IMG/VR virus record: IMGVR_UViG_2645727743_000019 | Strand: one strand, 5' to 3' | DNA from: a virus | Taxonomy: Duplodnaviria; Heunggongvirae; Uroviricota; Caudoviricetes | Length of the DNA: 4,133 nt | Shown here: positions 1-4,133 of the stretch, piece by piece | Numbering within the stretch: the first letter of the stretch is position 1 | How the letters are laid out: every line of letters begins with the position of its first letter | Translations under genes and position numbers: made by a program | The notes under the pieces: model-generated | The model's database searches: none | Told to the model about the DNA's origin: nothing | What the model saw: the letters and a program-made list of their open reading frames with translations, nothing else

Positions 1-68
1 TAGCTGAACAGGAGGGACAGCTGATAGAAACAGAAGCCACTGGAGCACCTCAAAAACACCATCATACA

Positions 69-314
69 CTAAATCAGTAAGTTGGCAGCATCACCCAAAC
101 TTCCAGGGTACTCTGAAAGTTTGGATTCTAAATAATGTTTACTGGTTGTTAAATTTCTTACTAGCCCTTGTCTATATTCGGCTGTTACATCAACCAATAC
201 CTTTGCCCCACCGCCAGCGTTTACTATTGCACCCAAGTCACTACTGGAAAAAGGGATTCTTAACATTGGGTTTGTAACTTTTGCGTTACTAAACTGTGTA
301 CCCCTTCTGCTCAT
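69..314 (-). CDS. hypothetical small protein (81 aa) overlapping the 3' end of the AAA ATPase gene; candidate partner of the ATPase
   Basis: Open frame of 81 codons with TAG stop at 69-71. The ATG at 314-312 is preceded on the coding strand by AAGGAGTCAGGAGCAT, which holds two Shine-Dalgarno-like GGAG cores. The start lies inside the last 26 nt of the AAA gene in a different frame, an arrangement typical of translational coupling. Composition is AT-rich like the ATPase gene. I recognise no motif in the protein (contains NAGGGAKVLVDV). Confidence 0.45.
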   Translation of the reverse strand: MSRRGTQFSNAKVTNPMLRIPFSSSDLGAIVNAGGGAKVLVDVTAEYRQGLVRNLTTSKHYLESKLSEYPGSLGDAANLLI

Positions 315-1443
315 ATGCTCCTGACTCCTTCAGAATGTTTGAAATTACTCTTGATGTAAGTTTGTACAAATTAGCAAGAACTCTGATAGAAAATAATTTT
401 TTATCTTTAGAACGTAACCAACGAATTTCATCTTCGTAAGTGCTTAAATTTACACCTTCCATAAGCGATTGCGCAAGATACAAACGCCTATACAATTTAT
501 GGTGATTTATCACACTTGCACCTTCAATAACTGCATCCCTACGTGCATCCAAGCTCACCTGTTCAATTATTGCTCCGGATAATCCCTCCGATTTTCTTGA
601 TAAATCACTTAAATCTAGATCGCTACATATCATATTCTTTAAACGATTTTTCCAAATTAACTCTCTCTGATGTATGTCAGGCAGAGGCATTGGAATTCTG
701 AAGCTAAATCGCCTCCAGATTGCAGGATCCAGAAGTTGCTCATGGTTAGTTGAGGCAATAATTACCGTATCCTCTGATGCCGCATCCATATTCTGCAATA
801 GTGAAATGACAACTCGCTGAAGCTCACCTATATCTCTCTCATTACCTCTTGCTCCAGCTAAAGCATCAAATTCGTCTAAAAAAAGCACTGATGGCCTCTG
901 CATTACATAATCGAAAACCTGTCTAAGATTTTTGCTGGTTTGTCCCAATAAACTACTAATCAAAGTATCGCAACGCACTGTAAGAAGTGGAAAATCTAAG
1001 CGGGTAGCGATGTACTTAGATAACATAGTCTTACCTGTTCCTGGCTTTCCATACACGAGCATACGACTCGGCAATGCTGCATCAGCTTTAACAAACTCAT
1101 CATAACGTTGAACATTAGTGATAAACTCTTCAACACGGGTACTGATTGCTGCAGGCAGAAAAATCTCTGAACTGTCTAATTTAGGATAACTGACATCAAC
1201 AGTGTTGAGTCGACTATCAATATCTACCGGTAATGAGCCCAGAGATATCCCACCTCCAGCCCTTTGAGCTCCTGCCAACGCCTGGGGAGCTCTAAGCAAC
1301 CTTTCTCTTATCATTCTGGCTTGCTTGACCTCCCCTTTTTGTTCGAGCTTATCTGCCAGCAACCCAGCATAATTACTAGCCATCGAAGCATTTGCCTTTG
1401 TTGCACCTTCAATGATTTTTAACACTTCTGATAAATAATCCAT
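289..1443 (-). CDS. AAA family ATPase, classic clade, with uncharacterised ~120-aa N-terminal domain
   Basis: 384-aa ORF, ATG at 1443-1441 preceded by GGGAGTGTTGA (SD-like GGGAG). Walker A is GKPGTGKT (aa 132-139, nt 1027-1050) and Walker B is VLFLDEFD (nt 865-885). Sensor-1 is ASTN, followed by a second region of homology AIWRRFSFRIPMPLP with tandem arginines (aa 244-245). A lid-type motif GLSGAII sits near aa 287-293. The RRF..RI...PLP pattern is what I associate with the Vps4/katanin/spastin-like branch of classic AAA proteins. The N-terminal ~120 residues and C-terminal ~90 residues carry no motif I can assign. Confidence 0.9.
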   Translation of the reverse strand: MDYLSEVLKIIEGATKANASMASNYAGLLADKLEQKGEVKQARMIRERLLRAPQALAGAQRAGGGISLGSLPVDIDSRLNTVDVSYPKLDSSEIFLPAAISTRVEEFITNVQRYDEFVKADAALPSRMLVYGKPGTGKTMLSKYIATRLDFPLLTVRCDTLISSLLGQTSKNLRQVFDYVMQRPSVLFLDEFDALAGARGNERDIGELQRVVISLLQNMDAASEDTVIIASTNHEQLLDPAIWRRFSFRIPMPLPDIHQRELIWKNRLKNMICSDLDLSDLSRKSEGLSGAIIEQVSLDARRDAVIEGASVINHHKLYRRLYLAQSLMEGVNLSTYEDEIRWLRSKDKKLFSIRVLANLYKLTSRVISNILKESGAYEQKGYTV

Positions 1444-1640
1444 TCAACACTCCCACAACAAAAAGCCACAGCAATCAAAAAATGAGCACACAGAATCAAA
1501 ATACTCTCTAATCGTAACGCATTTTGAGATTTTTGATACGTTTTTTTGGGATTATGTAACGCCAAATGGTCATTTTGTGTCAGAAAAATAAATCTTAGTA
1601 CCGAGAATATGTAGCTTCCATCCTTCATCGTTCTATTCAT
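1419..1640 (-). CDS. possible small hydrophobic protein (73 aa) bridging the replication module and the AAA ATPase gene; speculative
   Basis: The ATG at 1640-1638 overlaps the TGA stop (1639-1637) of the upstream 143-aa gene as ATGA, with GGAG 7 nt upstream. The frame stays open for 73 codons through the whole AT-rich 'intergenic' region and ends at TAA 1421-1419, inside the first 25 nt of the AAA gene. The predicted product has a hydrophobic stretch (ESILILCAHFLIAVAFCCGSV) that could be a single transmembrane helix. Against it: rare codons, no recognisable domain, and the region could instead be a non-coding promoter leader. Confidence 0.25.
   Translation of the reverse strand: MNRTMKDGSYIFSVLRFIFLTQNDHLALHNPKKTYQKSQNALRLESILILCAHFLIAVAFCCGSVEWIIYQKC
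1444..1636 (-). promoter_or_regulatory. AT-rich leader upstream of the AAA ATPase gene; possible promoter and operator region (alternative to the small-ORF reading)
   Basis: 193 bp between the stop of the 143-aa gene and the AAA start, about 30% G+C. On the coding strand it contains weak sigma70-like elements (CTGACA ... TTACAT/CATAAT) and an A-tract. A short inverted repeat CCAAATG-GT-CATTTTG sits at 1562-1577 (5-bp perfect core). No convincing intrinsic terminator hairpin with a T-run was seen. Promoter calls by eye are unreliable. Confidence 0.2.
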
Positions 1641-2068
1641 CCCTGATCTCCAAGCCTCTCTCGAAAACCATTCTGATAAAACGCCAGCACACGCTGCATA
1701 ACTTCGCTCTTCCGGCACTCGCGACAGATTATGTTCAGACGCCTGTCGTAGCGGCGTATTTCTCCGTCTGGTAATGACCAGATAAGGTCCGGATCAACCA
1801 CAGATGGTTTCTTCACCTTTGCCCTGGATAGTTTTTTGCGGGCATTTTGCCAGTCCTTACGAGCCTGTTCAGACGGGAATAACCCGTAACCAGAGTTGTA
1901 TACATCGCCACTGGCAACCAGCTCTCTGGCGAGAACGCTCATCAGATATCTTGTCGCACCTGTCTTGGCTTCCAGTTGCCGTAACATCTCGCGCCCACTC
2001 CGGCGTACTAGCTCAACAACCTGCCCTTTAATTTTTTCCCGCTCTTCTTGTGTAAATACTTTTGCCAT
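1637..2068 (-). CDS. hypothetical protein (143 aa), basic, prophage replication-region gene of unknown function
   Basis: ATG at 2068-2066 is preceded by GGAGG at 7-nt spacing and lies 15 nt downstream of the TGA stop of the preceding gene. The longer version in the ORF track begins at a TTG (2083) and is less likely. The protein is rich in R/K and has a single CxxC (ICRECRK). Composition matches the replication module. I do not recognise the family. Confidence 0.65.
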   Translation of the reverse strand: MAKVFTQEEREKIKGQVVELVRRSGREMLRQLEAKTGATRYLMSVLARELVASGDVYNSGYGLFPSEQARKDWQNARKKLSRAKVKKPSVVDPDLIWSLPDGEIRRYDRRLNIICRECRKSEVMQRVLAFYQNGFRERLGDQG

Positions 2069-2083
2069 AAGCGCCTCCGGCAA

Positions 2084-2867: not shown

Positions 2868-3614
2868 TTACTTCGCAATTCCTGGCTGGACGACATTCGG
2901 ACGCCAGCTCTCCCAGTTAAAATTCACCCATAGCCCGCCGTTCATGGTCATGCGATCCATAATCCGCTCGCCGAGCAATGTTTTCATGGCCTCATAGTTC
3001 AGGTTTGTCAGCATCCCCACGCTGCGCATCGACGCTGTCCGGCGATCAACAATCTGGTGCAGTACCACCTGCTCGTTTTTCGTCTCGCGCTGAATGCCAA
3101 TTTCATCAAGAACCAGCAGATCCACTTCGCACAGTTCCCGCAAAAATTTTTCGCCTGACTGCCCATCGTCATAGCTGGCGTGGAGGGCACTCATAACATC
3201 AGCCACGGTAACCACAATCACTGTCTGACCGTCTTTCAGCAGGCGATTCCCGATAGCTGCTGCTAAGTGGTTCTTCCCGGTACCAGGTTTTCCGCTAAAC
3301 GCGAAATTTGTGCATCCGGTCATCAGTTCATCAGCGATAGATTTCGCCTGGCTCAACGCGTATCGCTGACCGTCGTTCTGCACCTGGTAATTCGCAAACG
3401 AGCATTTACGGTGCAACGGCTGGATGCCTGAGCGATTCAGAATTTTTTCCACCCGCAACTGGCGATTCAGGCGGTTGATCTCCTCGCTACGTTTCTGGCC
3501 TTCAGCAAGTTGCCACTCGTGCCACTCCGCTACCGTTCTGAATGGGGCGGTTACATGTGGCGGAGCCAGTCTTCGGATACGTTCAAGAACGCCGCCTGCC
3601 GCAATGTTTTTCAT
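2868..3614 (-). CDS. dnaC: DnaC-like replicative helicase loader (prophage paralogue of DnaC)
   Basis: 248-aa ORF with Walker [18 protein letters not shown] (nt 3270-3293), Walker [10 protein letters not shown] and [11 protein letters not shown]. These stretches are near-identical to what I recall of E. coli DnaC ([30 protein letters not shown]). The N-terminus ([17 protein letters not shown]) also resembles DnaC. The ATG at 3614 lies 6 nt after the TGA of the upstream DnaT-like gene with AGGGGG as SD, as in a dnaT-dnaC type operon. Confidence 0.9.
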
Positions 3615-3620
3615 GACACG

Positions 3621-4133
3621 TCACCCCCTGAATCCCGGCGGTATTTCAGTGTCCGGTTCAGAAATGTGATTCACGCAACGCTGCGCAGGCAAACGCCCCA
3701 GGCGGATAACCAGTTCATCCCATTTTTCCCGGAGTTTTGCCGGACTCATGATGTTTTTTACCCAGAACGAATCCCGCTGGAGACGCCCAAACATTTCACA
3801 AATTTGTCTGTGAGTTCTGCCATCCAGCATCCGCATTGTGCGAACGTCATTGGCCCATGCTGTCCAGTTGGGTTCTTTCGGTCTAGTGATCTCGCCATCA
3901 TAGCTGGCCGCCTGCTCGTAAAGACTCACGATTCGTCCCCAGATCCACTGTGCGCACACCAAATCTTCCTGACTTCCCCACTGGCGTTTTTTCGCACTGA
4001 ACACAACCGCGTCAGGGTGTCGGGTTAAAAAATCCTGTTCAGCCGTCTGCGGGTCCGGTTGCGAAGCGTCCGGACAAGAAGATCTTTTATCTGACGGATC
4101 AGGTTTTAATACTGACGGATCGGGGTCAATCAT
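3621..4133 (-). CDS. phage replication protein with DnaT-like (primosomal protein I) C-terminal domain; possibly 5'-truncated by the window edge
   Basis: Open frame running from the window edge to TGA 3623-3621. The C-terminus (ISEPDTEIPPGFRG) closely matches the C-terminal end of E. coli DnaT as I recall it (...SEPDSQIPPGFRG). It sits immediately upstream of, and is coupled to, the DnaC-like gene. The frame begins with ATG exactly at 4133-4131, so the true start may be this codon or may lie beyond the window. Confidence 0.8.
   Translation of the reverse strand: MIDPDPSVLKPDPSDKRSSCPDASQPDPQTAEQDFLTRHPDAVVFSAKKRQWGSQEDLVCAQWIWGRIVSLYEQAASYDGEITRPKEPNWTAWANDVRTMRMLDGRTHRQICEMFGRLQRDSFWVKNIMSPAKLREKWDELVIRLGRLPAQRCVNHISEPDTEIPPGFRG

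Follow-up and report, generated by a model that had tools for sequence, protein, structure and literature searches.

An IetA-family AAA ATPase beside an IS1-truncated ietS toxin gene in an Escherichia coli prophage

The 384-aa ATPase encoded in this viral DNA is, judged by its sequence, IetA (alias IteA), the ATPase already named as partner of the protease IetS in IetAS, an anti-phage and toxin-antitoxin system. The gene for the protease is broken by an IS1 element. We regard these two points together, the identity of the ATPase and the IS1 truncation of iteS, as near certain. Our best overall explanation joins them to a mechanism in which IetA would hold or remodel IetS, and to this combined reading we give a probability of about 0.8. 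The mechanism taken by itself stands at roughly even odds. The IetA family and the IetAS system are already known, named and curated, and what is described here is not a new kind of system. The window, meaning the whole stretch of DNA that was analysed, is 4,133 nucleotides long (IMG/VR record IMGVR_UViG_2645727743_000019). In window coordinates, the locus is laid out as follows.

1444..1636, minus strand: AT-rich region upstream of iteA, with an imperfect inverted repeat (1495-1506 / 1526-1537).
289..1443, minus strand: iteA/ietA gene, for a 384-aa predicted classic-clade AAA ATPase, the antitoxin or regulatory component of IetAS.
93..314, minus strand: iteS/ietS remnant, codons 1-74 of a 754-aa S8 peptidase toxin.
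1..95, unstranded: end of an IS1 element, which contributes the final 7 codons (DAANLLI) and the stop of an 81-aa ORF (69..314, minus strand).

The 384 residues are the translation of the ORF at 289..1443 on the minus strand. They match the NCBIfam equivalog NF042959, "anti-phage ATPase IteA", at 526.6 bits against a cutoff of 510, and residues 1-367 cover all of the 367-position model. The PADLOC IetA model PDLC02196 (8.9e-143) and phrog_3757 (6.8e-147) match the same protein. WP_000385105.1, which is 100% identical to it, lies in an intact iteA-iteS locus, and Escherichia phage vB_EcoS-683R6 also encodes an identical protein. The initial annotation had spoken of an unassigned N-terminal domain; the protein as a whole is placed in a named family by the NCBIfam and PADLOC matches. 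It had also given the span as 700-1443. This holds residues 1-248 only, cuts the AIWRRFSFRIPMPLP motif, which extends to window 679, and omits the lid and the C-terminal domain (289-699).

In a matching prophage context, the iteA-iteS pair occurs in 78 complete E. coli genomes. Here, iteA lies in a Rac-like lambdoid E. coli prophage, as a stretch of low GC inserted into the replication region, and E. coli ietAS has been reported to sit in prophage regions (bioRxiv 2022.08.21.504612). Gene order is that of the known loci, with the start of iteS overlapping the stop of iteA; the overlap in the window is 26 nt (289-314). Whereas known loci are a two-gene pair, iteS in the present copy is cut after codon 74 by IS1, leaving the pair incomplete.

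What is left of iteS is identical to the intact IteS protein WP_109963257.1 at 74 of 74 residues. The PADLOC IetS profile recognises the remnant over positions 3-64 of 749 (E = 1.3e-10), as does the NCBIfam IteS model (1.2e-09). Homology to intact iteS ends at window ~93-96, and window positions 1-96 are 100% identical to thousands of sites annotated "IS1-like element IS1A family transposase". The stretch at about window 73-95 we take to be the IS1 terminal inverted repeat. The fused 81-aa ORF was found in 8 contigs, 7 of them independent read-set assemblies. Besides the source contig, 7 read-set assemblies confirm the exact IS1/iteS junction; none of the complete E. coli genomes in the collection searched has it.

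In intact IetS, the S8 catalytic domain occupies residues 268-544 and is therefore missing from the 74-codon remnant. No full-length S8 peptidase gene (~750 aa) lies downstream of iteA, so the two-gene module is incomplete. Because IS1 after codon 74 removes the whole S8 domain, the present locus is incapable of IetS-dependent killing, and IetA remains as an intact orphan antitoxin. The 81-aa ORF had been put forward as a possible small partner of the ATPase. We reject it in this role, since it consists of 74 iteS codons and 7 codons from the IS1 end, a composition that marks it as an insertion artefact.

In IetAS, the subtilisin-like protease IetS acts as toxin with IetA as its antitoxin, and defence requires the protease activity (PMC13069673). 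[quoted passage not shown] The system is reported to work by abortive infection on being triggered by a phage protein, and ietAS becomes toxic once SPbeta yosG is expressed (bioRxiv 2022.08.27.505566). A mycoplasma pair, MMCAP2_0132/0133, which we liken to IetAS by description, follows the same logic. An AAA antitoxin of ~353 aa lies upstream of an S8 toxin of ~757 aa, and cells that have the toxin cannot do without the antitoxin (PMC8562856). In this AAA-ATPase/subtilase pair, deletion of only the ATPase kills the cell, and the toxicity was neutralised in E. coli; the ATPase still neutralised with separate inducible promoters driving the toxin and the antitoxin (PMC8562856). The mycoplasma pair is chromosomal in a Mollicute and has no prophage link, whereas IetA is prophage-borne. 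The genetic evidence for restraint of IetS by IetA was obtained in other species and with a three-gene variant, not in the E. coli system. Since loss of a toxin is tolerated and loss of an antitoxin is not, the survival of IetA with the loss of IetS fits toxin-antitoxin logic. An ATPase antitoxin to a protease toxin is thus already in the literature (PMC13069673, PMC8562856), and the unusual mode of action that the initial annotation had suggested is not supported.

The AAA module of IetA carries the following elements.

679..1152, minus strand: AAA large (alpha/beta) domain, residues 98-255, from Pfam PF00004 and invariant columns.
1027-1050, minus strand: Walker A, GKPGTGKT, residues 132-139.
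943-957, minus strand: pore loop 1, SSLLG.
865-885, minus strand: Walker B, LFLDEFD, residues 187-193.
745-756, minus strand: sensor-1 ASTN, residues 230-233, with N233 as the sensor-1 residue.
679-723, minus strand: AIWRRFSFRIPMPLP motif, residues 241-255.
709-714, minus strand: Arg fingers R244/R245 of the second region of homology (SRH).
457..675, minus strand: small helical (lid) domain of the AAA module, residues 257-329; the G-[LMF]-S-G-A motif of the classic clade lies at 287-291.

Pfam PF00004 (AAA) matches residues 128-253 at E = 2.6e-30, far beyond chance. An AAA ATPase with sensor-1 ASTN followed by AIWRRFSFRIPMPLP had been read from the DNA at the outset, and both motifs are there, at residues 230-233 and 241-255. 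We aligned the IetA family using 60 sequences, with identity down to 31%. Invariant in this alignment are G132, P134, G135, G137, K138, D190, E191, N233, H234, D239, A241, R244, R245 and F246. K138, D190/E191, N233 and R244/R245 are all present in this protein and invariant in the 60 relatives. The ATPase motifs (Walker A and B, sensor 1 and both Arg fingers) appear intact, which predicts catalytic competence. Within AIWRRFSFRIPMPLP, W243 and P255 are conserved in at least 90% of the 60 relatives, and the "RI" and "PL" positions vary. Position 165 of pore loop 1 is Leu in 25 relatives, Tyr in 20, Phe in 12 and Met in 3. The residue is thus aromatic (Y/F) in 32 of the 60 and Leu in the present subfamily. 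Because Leu165 is not the aromatic residue typical of processive translocases, threading is less certain for this subfamily than binding or holding.

The PF00004 match, together with a second region of homology bearing two Arg fingers after sensor 1, assigns IetA by its motifs to the classic clade. The PAN, CDC48, FtsH and CdvC profiles all score between 92 and 124 bits, and in fold IetA is nearer to the classic clade than to other clades of AAA+ proteins; the classic-clade placement proposed at the outset therefore stands. For the lid, AAA_lid_3 reaches 17.9 bits, under its cutoff of 27.2. The lid helices are modelled at pLDDT >90, and the sequence shows a GLSGA motif at residues 287-291 that is for the most part conserved in relatives. 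Unlike Cdc48/p97/VAT, PAN/Rpt and FtsH, IetA has one AAA module, lacks any protease or OB/N domain, and has a three-helix bundle at its N-terminus and a helix-turn-helix (HTH) at its C-terminus that are its own. Where those proteins have Arg fingers in the form R-P-G-R, IetA has an adjacent RR, and pore loop 1 of its subfamily has Leu in place of an aromatic residue.

The region ahead of the ATPase divides into three parts.

1258..1443, minus strand: N-terminal three-helix bundle, residues 1-62, with helices 4-15, 19-35 and 39-62 (AlphaFold2).
1234..1275, minus strand: variable disordered Gly-rich linker, residues ~57-70, holding RAGGGISLGS.
1183..1233, minus strand: residues 71-87, a P-x-D-x-[ED]-S-R-L ... 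P segment that is better conserved than anything else ahead of the ATPase.

These parts were drawn with the help of an AlphaFold2 model of IetA (mean pLDDT 85.5). The N-terminus had first been described as helical with a Gly-rich linker. The three helices agree with this, as does disorder at residues 57-67 (pLDDT <50), which overlaps RAGGGISLGS at residues 61-70 (window 1234-1263). Short strands come next, at residues 73-85 (pLDDT 71-85), and the AAA fold begins from about residue 98. No consensus residue occurs at positions ~50-70 of the family alignment. P72 is invariant and D74 at least 90% conserved (60 sequences, down to 31% identity). In all, about the first 95 residues are folded, and relatives throughout the family conserve them, which supports the earlier proposal of an N-terminal domain. 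By sequence, this domain matches neither a Pfam family nor a solved structure. Residues 1-117 alone matched no Pfam family, MIT (PF04212) included, at E up to 10. The N-domain family profile found no MIT among solved-structure sequences, returning chance-level matches only (designed proteins, AcrIIC4, KLC1 TPR; best E 0.02).

One alternative reading starts from the Arg fingers. WRRF is invariant across the IetA family, and a HMMER alignment pairs R244 and R245 with both Arg of the p97 RPGR, with a two-residue gap between them. Adjacent Arg fingers without the two-residue insert are the state in Vps4, katanin and spastin, the meiotic clade. IetA could then belong to this branch, with an MIT-like N-terminal bundle that binds a short helical motif of a partner, either IetS or a phage protein, and feeds the pore for disassembly. 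Consistent with this, the adjacent R244-R245 is invariant in the family and lacks the two residues of RPGR-type motifs. A Foldseek search with the N-domain also ranked the human VPS4B MIT domain first, and its top 17 included the CdvC MIT and katanin p60 N-terminal domains, none of these matches being significant. Several results speak against it. The CdvC profile scores below those of PAN, CDC48 and FtsH, and meiotic-clade members are not closer to IetA than other classic AAA families. Neither the SRH segment nor the whole protein has a meiotic-clade protein among its best 60 solved sequences. Pfam gives no match to Vps4_C or to MIT, the N-terminus alone having been searched up to E 10, and what follows the lid is an HTH where the meiotic clade has its C-terminal helix. 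Among the best 150 whole-protein scores, the nearest domains outside the family are all R-x-G-R, a weak point because such a list favours tandem AAA proteins. We consider this reading quite unlikely. Of the Vps4/katanin/spastin-like SRH proposed initially, the adjacent arginines hold up but the clade placement is judged unlikely. The suggested MIT-like adaptor fares similarly, with MIT domains recurring among the best structural matches, none significant, and no MIT match in sequence.

Vps4, CdvC, katanin and spastin combine an MIT domain with one AAA module, and their partners are ESCRT-III or tubulin. IetA has no MIT or Vps4_C sequence signal, its C-terminus is an HTH, and its partner is a protease toxin. 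It is very unlikely that IetA is a bacterial or phage relative of these MIT-plus-AAA machines (Vps4/CdvC type) that gained a DNA-binding HTH. If it were, the job of the N-terminal bundle would be to read a short helical motif, carried by IetS or a phage trigger protein, and that of the ring to take this target apart or unfold it. Toxin-antitoxin defence would then be linked to ESCRT-type disassembly ATPases.

Beyond the lid lies a domain that the initial annotation had missed.

307..438, minus strand: C-terminal helix-turn-helix domain, residues 336-379, called from the model, the family profile and relatives.

In the model, the C-terminus forms helices at residues 336-346, 353-360 and 364-379 (pLDDT 92-95). 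Searched against the PDB, the family C-terminal profile retrieves almost only HTH DNA-binding regulators, led by SpoIIID (0.002), DeoR (0.007) and AsnC (0.01). Further matches are to NtrC/TyrR, Aca1, LacI/PurR, MarR and Rrf2, and all align on the HTH. Among relatives, the C-terminal segments match Pfam HTH_23 in 14 of 42 cases, and also HTH_Tnp_4, HTH_3, HTH_28, Sigma70_r4 and others. IetA's own C-terminus (residues 314-384), searched alone, had no Pfam match at E up to 10, and Vps4_C (PF09336) gave no match to IetA at E up to 0.01. The predicted HTH is thus called from the model, the family profile and relatives, not from a Pfam match of its own. A literature search for IetA and helix-turn-helix found, in the library searched, no paper linking the two. 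The HTH probably adds DNA binding to IetA, which could serve either sensing or, as in type II antitoxins, autoregulation of the operon.

DNA binding could also be the main role of the protein. IetA would then be chiefly a regulator whose HTH sits on the iteAS promoter or on phage DNA, with the AAA module as a nucleotide-controlled switch and toxin control at the level of transcription. In favour of this, relatives throughout the family keep the HTH, and autoregulation through such a domain is common among type II antitoxins. There is also the inverted repeat upstream of iteA, with 12-nt arms of 83% complementarity, in a region of GC 0.36-0.44. This region (1444..1636) may be a candidate promoter and operator of iteA, but a scan of 1380-1700 for a sigma-70 consensus promoter or an intrinsic terminator returned neither, leaving the repeat with no consensus promoter nearby. 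An Rfam scan of the window returned nothing. Control through the native promoter is not required in the mycoplasma pair, where the ATPase neutralised the toxin from separate inducible promoters (PMC8562856). Moreover, the family conserves pore-loop, Arg-finger and ISS-like QN[IM]D motifs, which belong to ring-forming remodellers. We judge a mainly regulatory IetA unlikely.

The preferred reading remains that IetA acts on IetS directly. IetA would assemble into a ring, as other classic AAA ATPases do. Using ATP, its pore loops and the N-terminal bundle, it would hold, unfold or otherwise remodel IetS, and the protease would be kept inactive. A phage trigger would block or divert IetA, freeing IetS and killing the cell. 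A literature search for IetAS and cryo-EM found no structural study.

The opposite polarity can also be envisaged. IetA could be a sensor and activator that switches IetS on upon infection, by remodelling the protease or by stripping an inhibitory segment from it, comparable to the AAA partners that remodel HORMA proteins in CBASS. Defence-system TRIP13 models are in fact the next-best PADLOC matches (E = 2.4e-16), and published descriptions make IetA more than a safety catch, counting it as a component of the functioning defence. Yet the failure to construct a mutated-ietA plasmid (PMC13069673) and the lethality of deleting the mycoplasma ATPase (PMC8562856) point to restraint, and at the present locus it is IetA that survived and IetS that was lost, which fits an antitoxin. 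CBASS Trip13/Pch2, which remodels HORMA proteins, scores 58 bits against 474 for IetA and has other N- and C-terminal domains and another partner. An activating role for IetA is in our view rather improbable.

For annotation, these findings mean that the present copy is a dead system, and the locus should not be counted as active defence. IetAS itself is experimentally tied to plasmid stability and phage defence. For the question of how an AAA ATPase restrains a subtilase toxin and how phage infection releases that toxin, the domain map offers constructs: the three-helix N-domain, the PxDxESRL segment, the adjacent Arg fingers, the pore loop and the C-terminal HTH.

All substantial open reading frames (ORFs) of the window lie on the minus strand:

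3621-4133 (-), replication-initiator-like ORF
2868-3614 (-), DnaC/IstB-like ATPase, matching Pfam IstB_IS21 and Bac_DnaA
2084-2896 (-), DUF1627 protein
1637-2083 (-), DUF977 protein, in the PHROGs Ren-like exclusion family phrog_142
289-1443 (-), 384-aa ORF (IetA)
69-314 (-), 81-aa ORF

The 384-aa protein is a member of the known IetA (IteA) family, the ATPase partner of the S8 (subtilase) protease IetS (IteS). It scores 526.6 bits over residues 1-367 against the NCBIfam equivalog NF042959, 'anti-phage ATPase IteA', which has a curated cutoff of 510 bits. It also matches the PADLOC IetA model (8.9e-143) and phrog_3757 (6.8e-147), so it is not an unassigned protein. It is 100% identical to IteA of NZ_CP135649, and Escherichia phage vB_EcoS-683R6 (ON470595.1, 26064-27215) encodes a protein that it also matches at 100% identity. 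The features annotated under that second match are a 'cell division protein' and a 'kinase', and the IetA identity has therefore been missed in public phage annotation.

The 81-aa product, which had been proposed as a partner for pull-downs, is instead an insertion-truncated toxin gene. Over residues 1-74 it agrees exactly with the same residues of intact IteS, and in the PADLOC (749 positions) and NCBIfam (747) IetS/IteS profiles its match is confined to the first ~60. Homology to intact iteS stops at window ~93-96. Window 1-96 matches the IS1 end at 100% identity, and thousands of copies of this sequence carry an IS1 family transposase annotation. The final seven codons (DAANLLI) and stop of the ORF derive from the IS1 terminal repeat. 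The entire window corresponds to contig JHRM01000155.1 (assembly GCA_001265465.1; 4133 bp), which terminates in the end portion of an IS1 element inserted into iteS after codon 74. Since the S8 catalytic domain of intact IetS spans residues 268-544, it is gone here. The fused ORF is present in 8 contigs, seven of them independent read-set assemblies, so the junction is real and common to a set of isolates; the complete E. coli genomes of the collection all lack it. The IetAS system in the window is thus inactivated by IS1, and the proposal of an unusual mode of action is not supported: the protein is a known family member in a disrupted system. The two genes overlap, iteS starting 26 nt ahead of the iteA stop codon (window 289-314), which suggests translational coupling.

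Intact versions of the locus occur in other genomes. Prophage regions in 78 complete E. coli genomes are 99.7-99.9% identical to window 93-1800, with genes annotated iteA and iteS. In NZ_CP135649 the locus belongs to a Rac-like lambdoid prophage, has YdaV and YdaT-family neighbours, and runs DUF977, iteA (384 aa), iteS (754 aa), hypothetical protein, DUF968, RusA, antiterminator. The iteA/iteS region, window 1-1650, has a GC content of 0.36-0.45, against about 0.50-0.56 for the phage replication genes. The ATPase region therefore appears to be a foreign insert, and its composition is consistent with horizontal acquisition of an insert by the prophage. The DUF977 gene lies immediately upstream of iteA; given its Ren-like family, two exclusion/defence-type genes are adjacent. 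The longest DUF1627 ORF (270 aa) shares 29 nt with the end of the DnaC-like gene (window 2868-2896). The start chosen by gene callers is later and yields 253 aa, so the true start is probably downstream.

The motifs quoted in the initial annotation were all recovered in the translation of 289-1443 (-):

1027-1050 (-), Walker A, GKPGTGKT, residues 132-139
865-885 (-), Walker B, LFLDEFD, residues 187-193
745-756 (-), sensor 1, ASTN, residues 230-233
679-723 (-), second region of homology (SRH) motif, AIWRRFSFRIPMPLP, residues 241-255
1234-1263 (-), Gly-rich RAGGGISLGS, residues 61-70

The span of 700-1443 covers residues 1-248 only; it splits the SRH motif and omits the last 136 residues. Pfam PF00004 matches IetA with an E value of 2.6e-30, so the AAA assignment is not due to chance.

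Placement of IetA in the classic AAA clade, as first proposed, is strongly supported. On the ATPase module the NCBIfam profiles score 123.6 bits for PAN, 115.2 for CDC48, 101.4 for FtsH and 92.3 for CdvC. Among solved sequences the top matches are p97, Cdc48, VAT, AFG2, Rix7 and Rpt subunits, with p97 D2 giving 100 bits over residues 99-307. An AlphaFold2 model was built from an alignment of 60 sequences, the most distant at 31% identity (mean pLDDT 85.5, pTM 0.73). RuvBL, MoxR, RFC, DnaA, RuvB, ClpC and HslU reach scores of just 13.5-14.7. No IetA relative has a solved structure, and the top structure-based identity is 29%.

The more specific affiliation to Vps4, katanin and spastin is not supported, though one character fits it. 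Adjacent arginine fingers typify Vps4, katanin, spastin, fidgetin and Msp1. In IetA R244 and R245 are likewise adjacent and W-R-R-F is invariant across the family; p97 has R-P-G-R, and the HMMER alignment opens a two-residue gap there. No other character measured singles out this branch. CdvC, the archaeal Vps4, is the lowest scorer of the four main profiles, and IetA gives no Pfam signal for Vps4_C or MIT, the adaptor fold of Vps4-type N-termini. When the SRH segment alone (65 aa) was compared with solved sequences, the best 60 included Rix7, VAT, p97, Cdc48, Rpt3, AFG2 and NVL, with Vps4, spastin and katanin absent from these at 27 bits or more. Among 149 representatives inspected, domains of at least 138 bits all had WRRF (three GRRF or ARRF), and the next, at 104 bits or below, were tandem Cdc48/VAT-like and all R-x-G-R; this comparison is weak evidence because the list favours tandem proteins. 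The paired arginines may reflect an independent deletion.

The N-terminal region is predicted to form a folded module, as had been proposed, and not a disordered segment lacking a conserved fold. About 60 representatives (32-45% identity) align from residue 1, showing family-wide conservation. In the alignments I10, L29 and G37 are at least 90% conserved and positions ~50-70 lack consensus. Both AlphaFold2 models place helices at 4-15, 19-35 and 39-62/63 (pLDDT up to 95), followed in the full-length model by the Gly-rich stretch (pLDDT below 50) and short strands at 73-85. No sequence match was found in Pfam or the PDB, and Foldseek gave none at E 0.001 or better. Its first-ranked structure was nonetheless an MIT domain, that of human SKD1/VPS4B (E 1.2, probability 0.33), and the top 17 also include the MIT domain of CdvC and the N-terminal domain of katanin p60. 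The suggested MIT-like fold is compatible with the model but indistinguishable from a generic TPR-like three-helix bundle. That IetA is a true meiotic-clade member with an MIT adaptor is a less likely reading.

Between the linker and the ATPase lies a P-x-D-x-[ED]-S-R-L segment (residues 71-87, window 1183-1233), the most conserved stretch of the N-terminal region, with P72 invariant and D74 at least 90% conserved. Pore loop 1 is SSLLG (residues 163-167, window 943-957; family pattern S-S-x-L-G). At position 165, 32 of 60 relatives have Tyr or Phe; the enterobacterial/pseudomonad subfamily that includes this IetA has Leu, which may give weaker or different substrate gripping.

Profile and model evidence indicates a C-terminal helix-turn-helix (HTH) domain, conserved across the family and absent from the initial annotation. 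Residues 336-379 (window 307-438) are modelled as three helices with pLDDT 92-95. A profile built from the C-terminal segments of 42 relatives matched, among solved structures, almost exclusively HTH DNA-binding regulators, all aligned on the HTH: SpoIIID (E 0.002), DeoR (0.007) and AsnC (0.01), and further MerR, NtrC/TyrR, Aca1, LacI/PurR, MarR and Rrf2. The relatives' segments match many Pfam HTH families, such as HTH_23 in 14 of 42; the window's own segment, searched alone, is too diverged and gave no HTH match. We found no papers linking IetA to an HTH in the searchable literature. Upstream of the iteA start, window 1495-1506 and 1526-1537 form an imperfect inverted repeat, ATCAAAATACTC / GAGATTTTTGAT, that could be an operator for this HTH; no consensus promoter was found near it. 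The HTH probably contributes DNA binding for autoregulation or sensing. A mainly transcriptional role for IetA, which such a domain would allow, is less likely.

IetAS was first identified as a toxin-antitoxin pair that stabilises plasmids; the toxin is the serine protease and the antitoxin the ATPase (2026 NAR, PMC13069673). A mycoplasma AAA-ATPase/subtilase pair behaves likewise: losing only the ATPase kills the cell, and in E. coli, with the two genes under separate inducible promoters, the ATPase neutralises toxicity (PMC8562856). An ietAS system from Bacillus cereus works through abortive infection and is toxic upon expression of SPbeta yosG (bioRxiv 2022.08.27.505566), and ietAS of E. 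coli has been noted as prophage-borne (bioRxiv 2022.08.21.504612). The literature describes a toxic IetS neutralised by IetA, in an abortive defence triggered by a phage protein. For the copy in the window, the identity of IetA, its domain map, its intact catalytic motifs and the loss of IetS are established. We suggest that IetA would assemble as a ring, like its structural relatives, and hold or remodel IetS through ATP, the pore loops and the N-terminal bundle, keeping the protease inactive. A phage trigger would block or divert IetA and so release IetS. The alternative, that IetA activates IetS rather than inhibiting it, is less likely: the window has a destroyed toxin beside an intact antitoxin, the outcome predicted by toxin-antitoxin logic. 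The family is already known, so this is not a new system. The value of the IetA domain map is modest, as a guide for mechanism experiments, especially its C-terminal HTH and conserved N-terminal elements.
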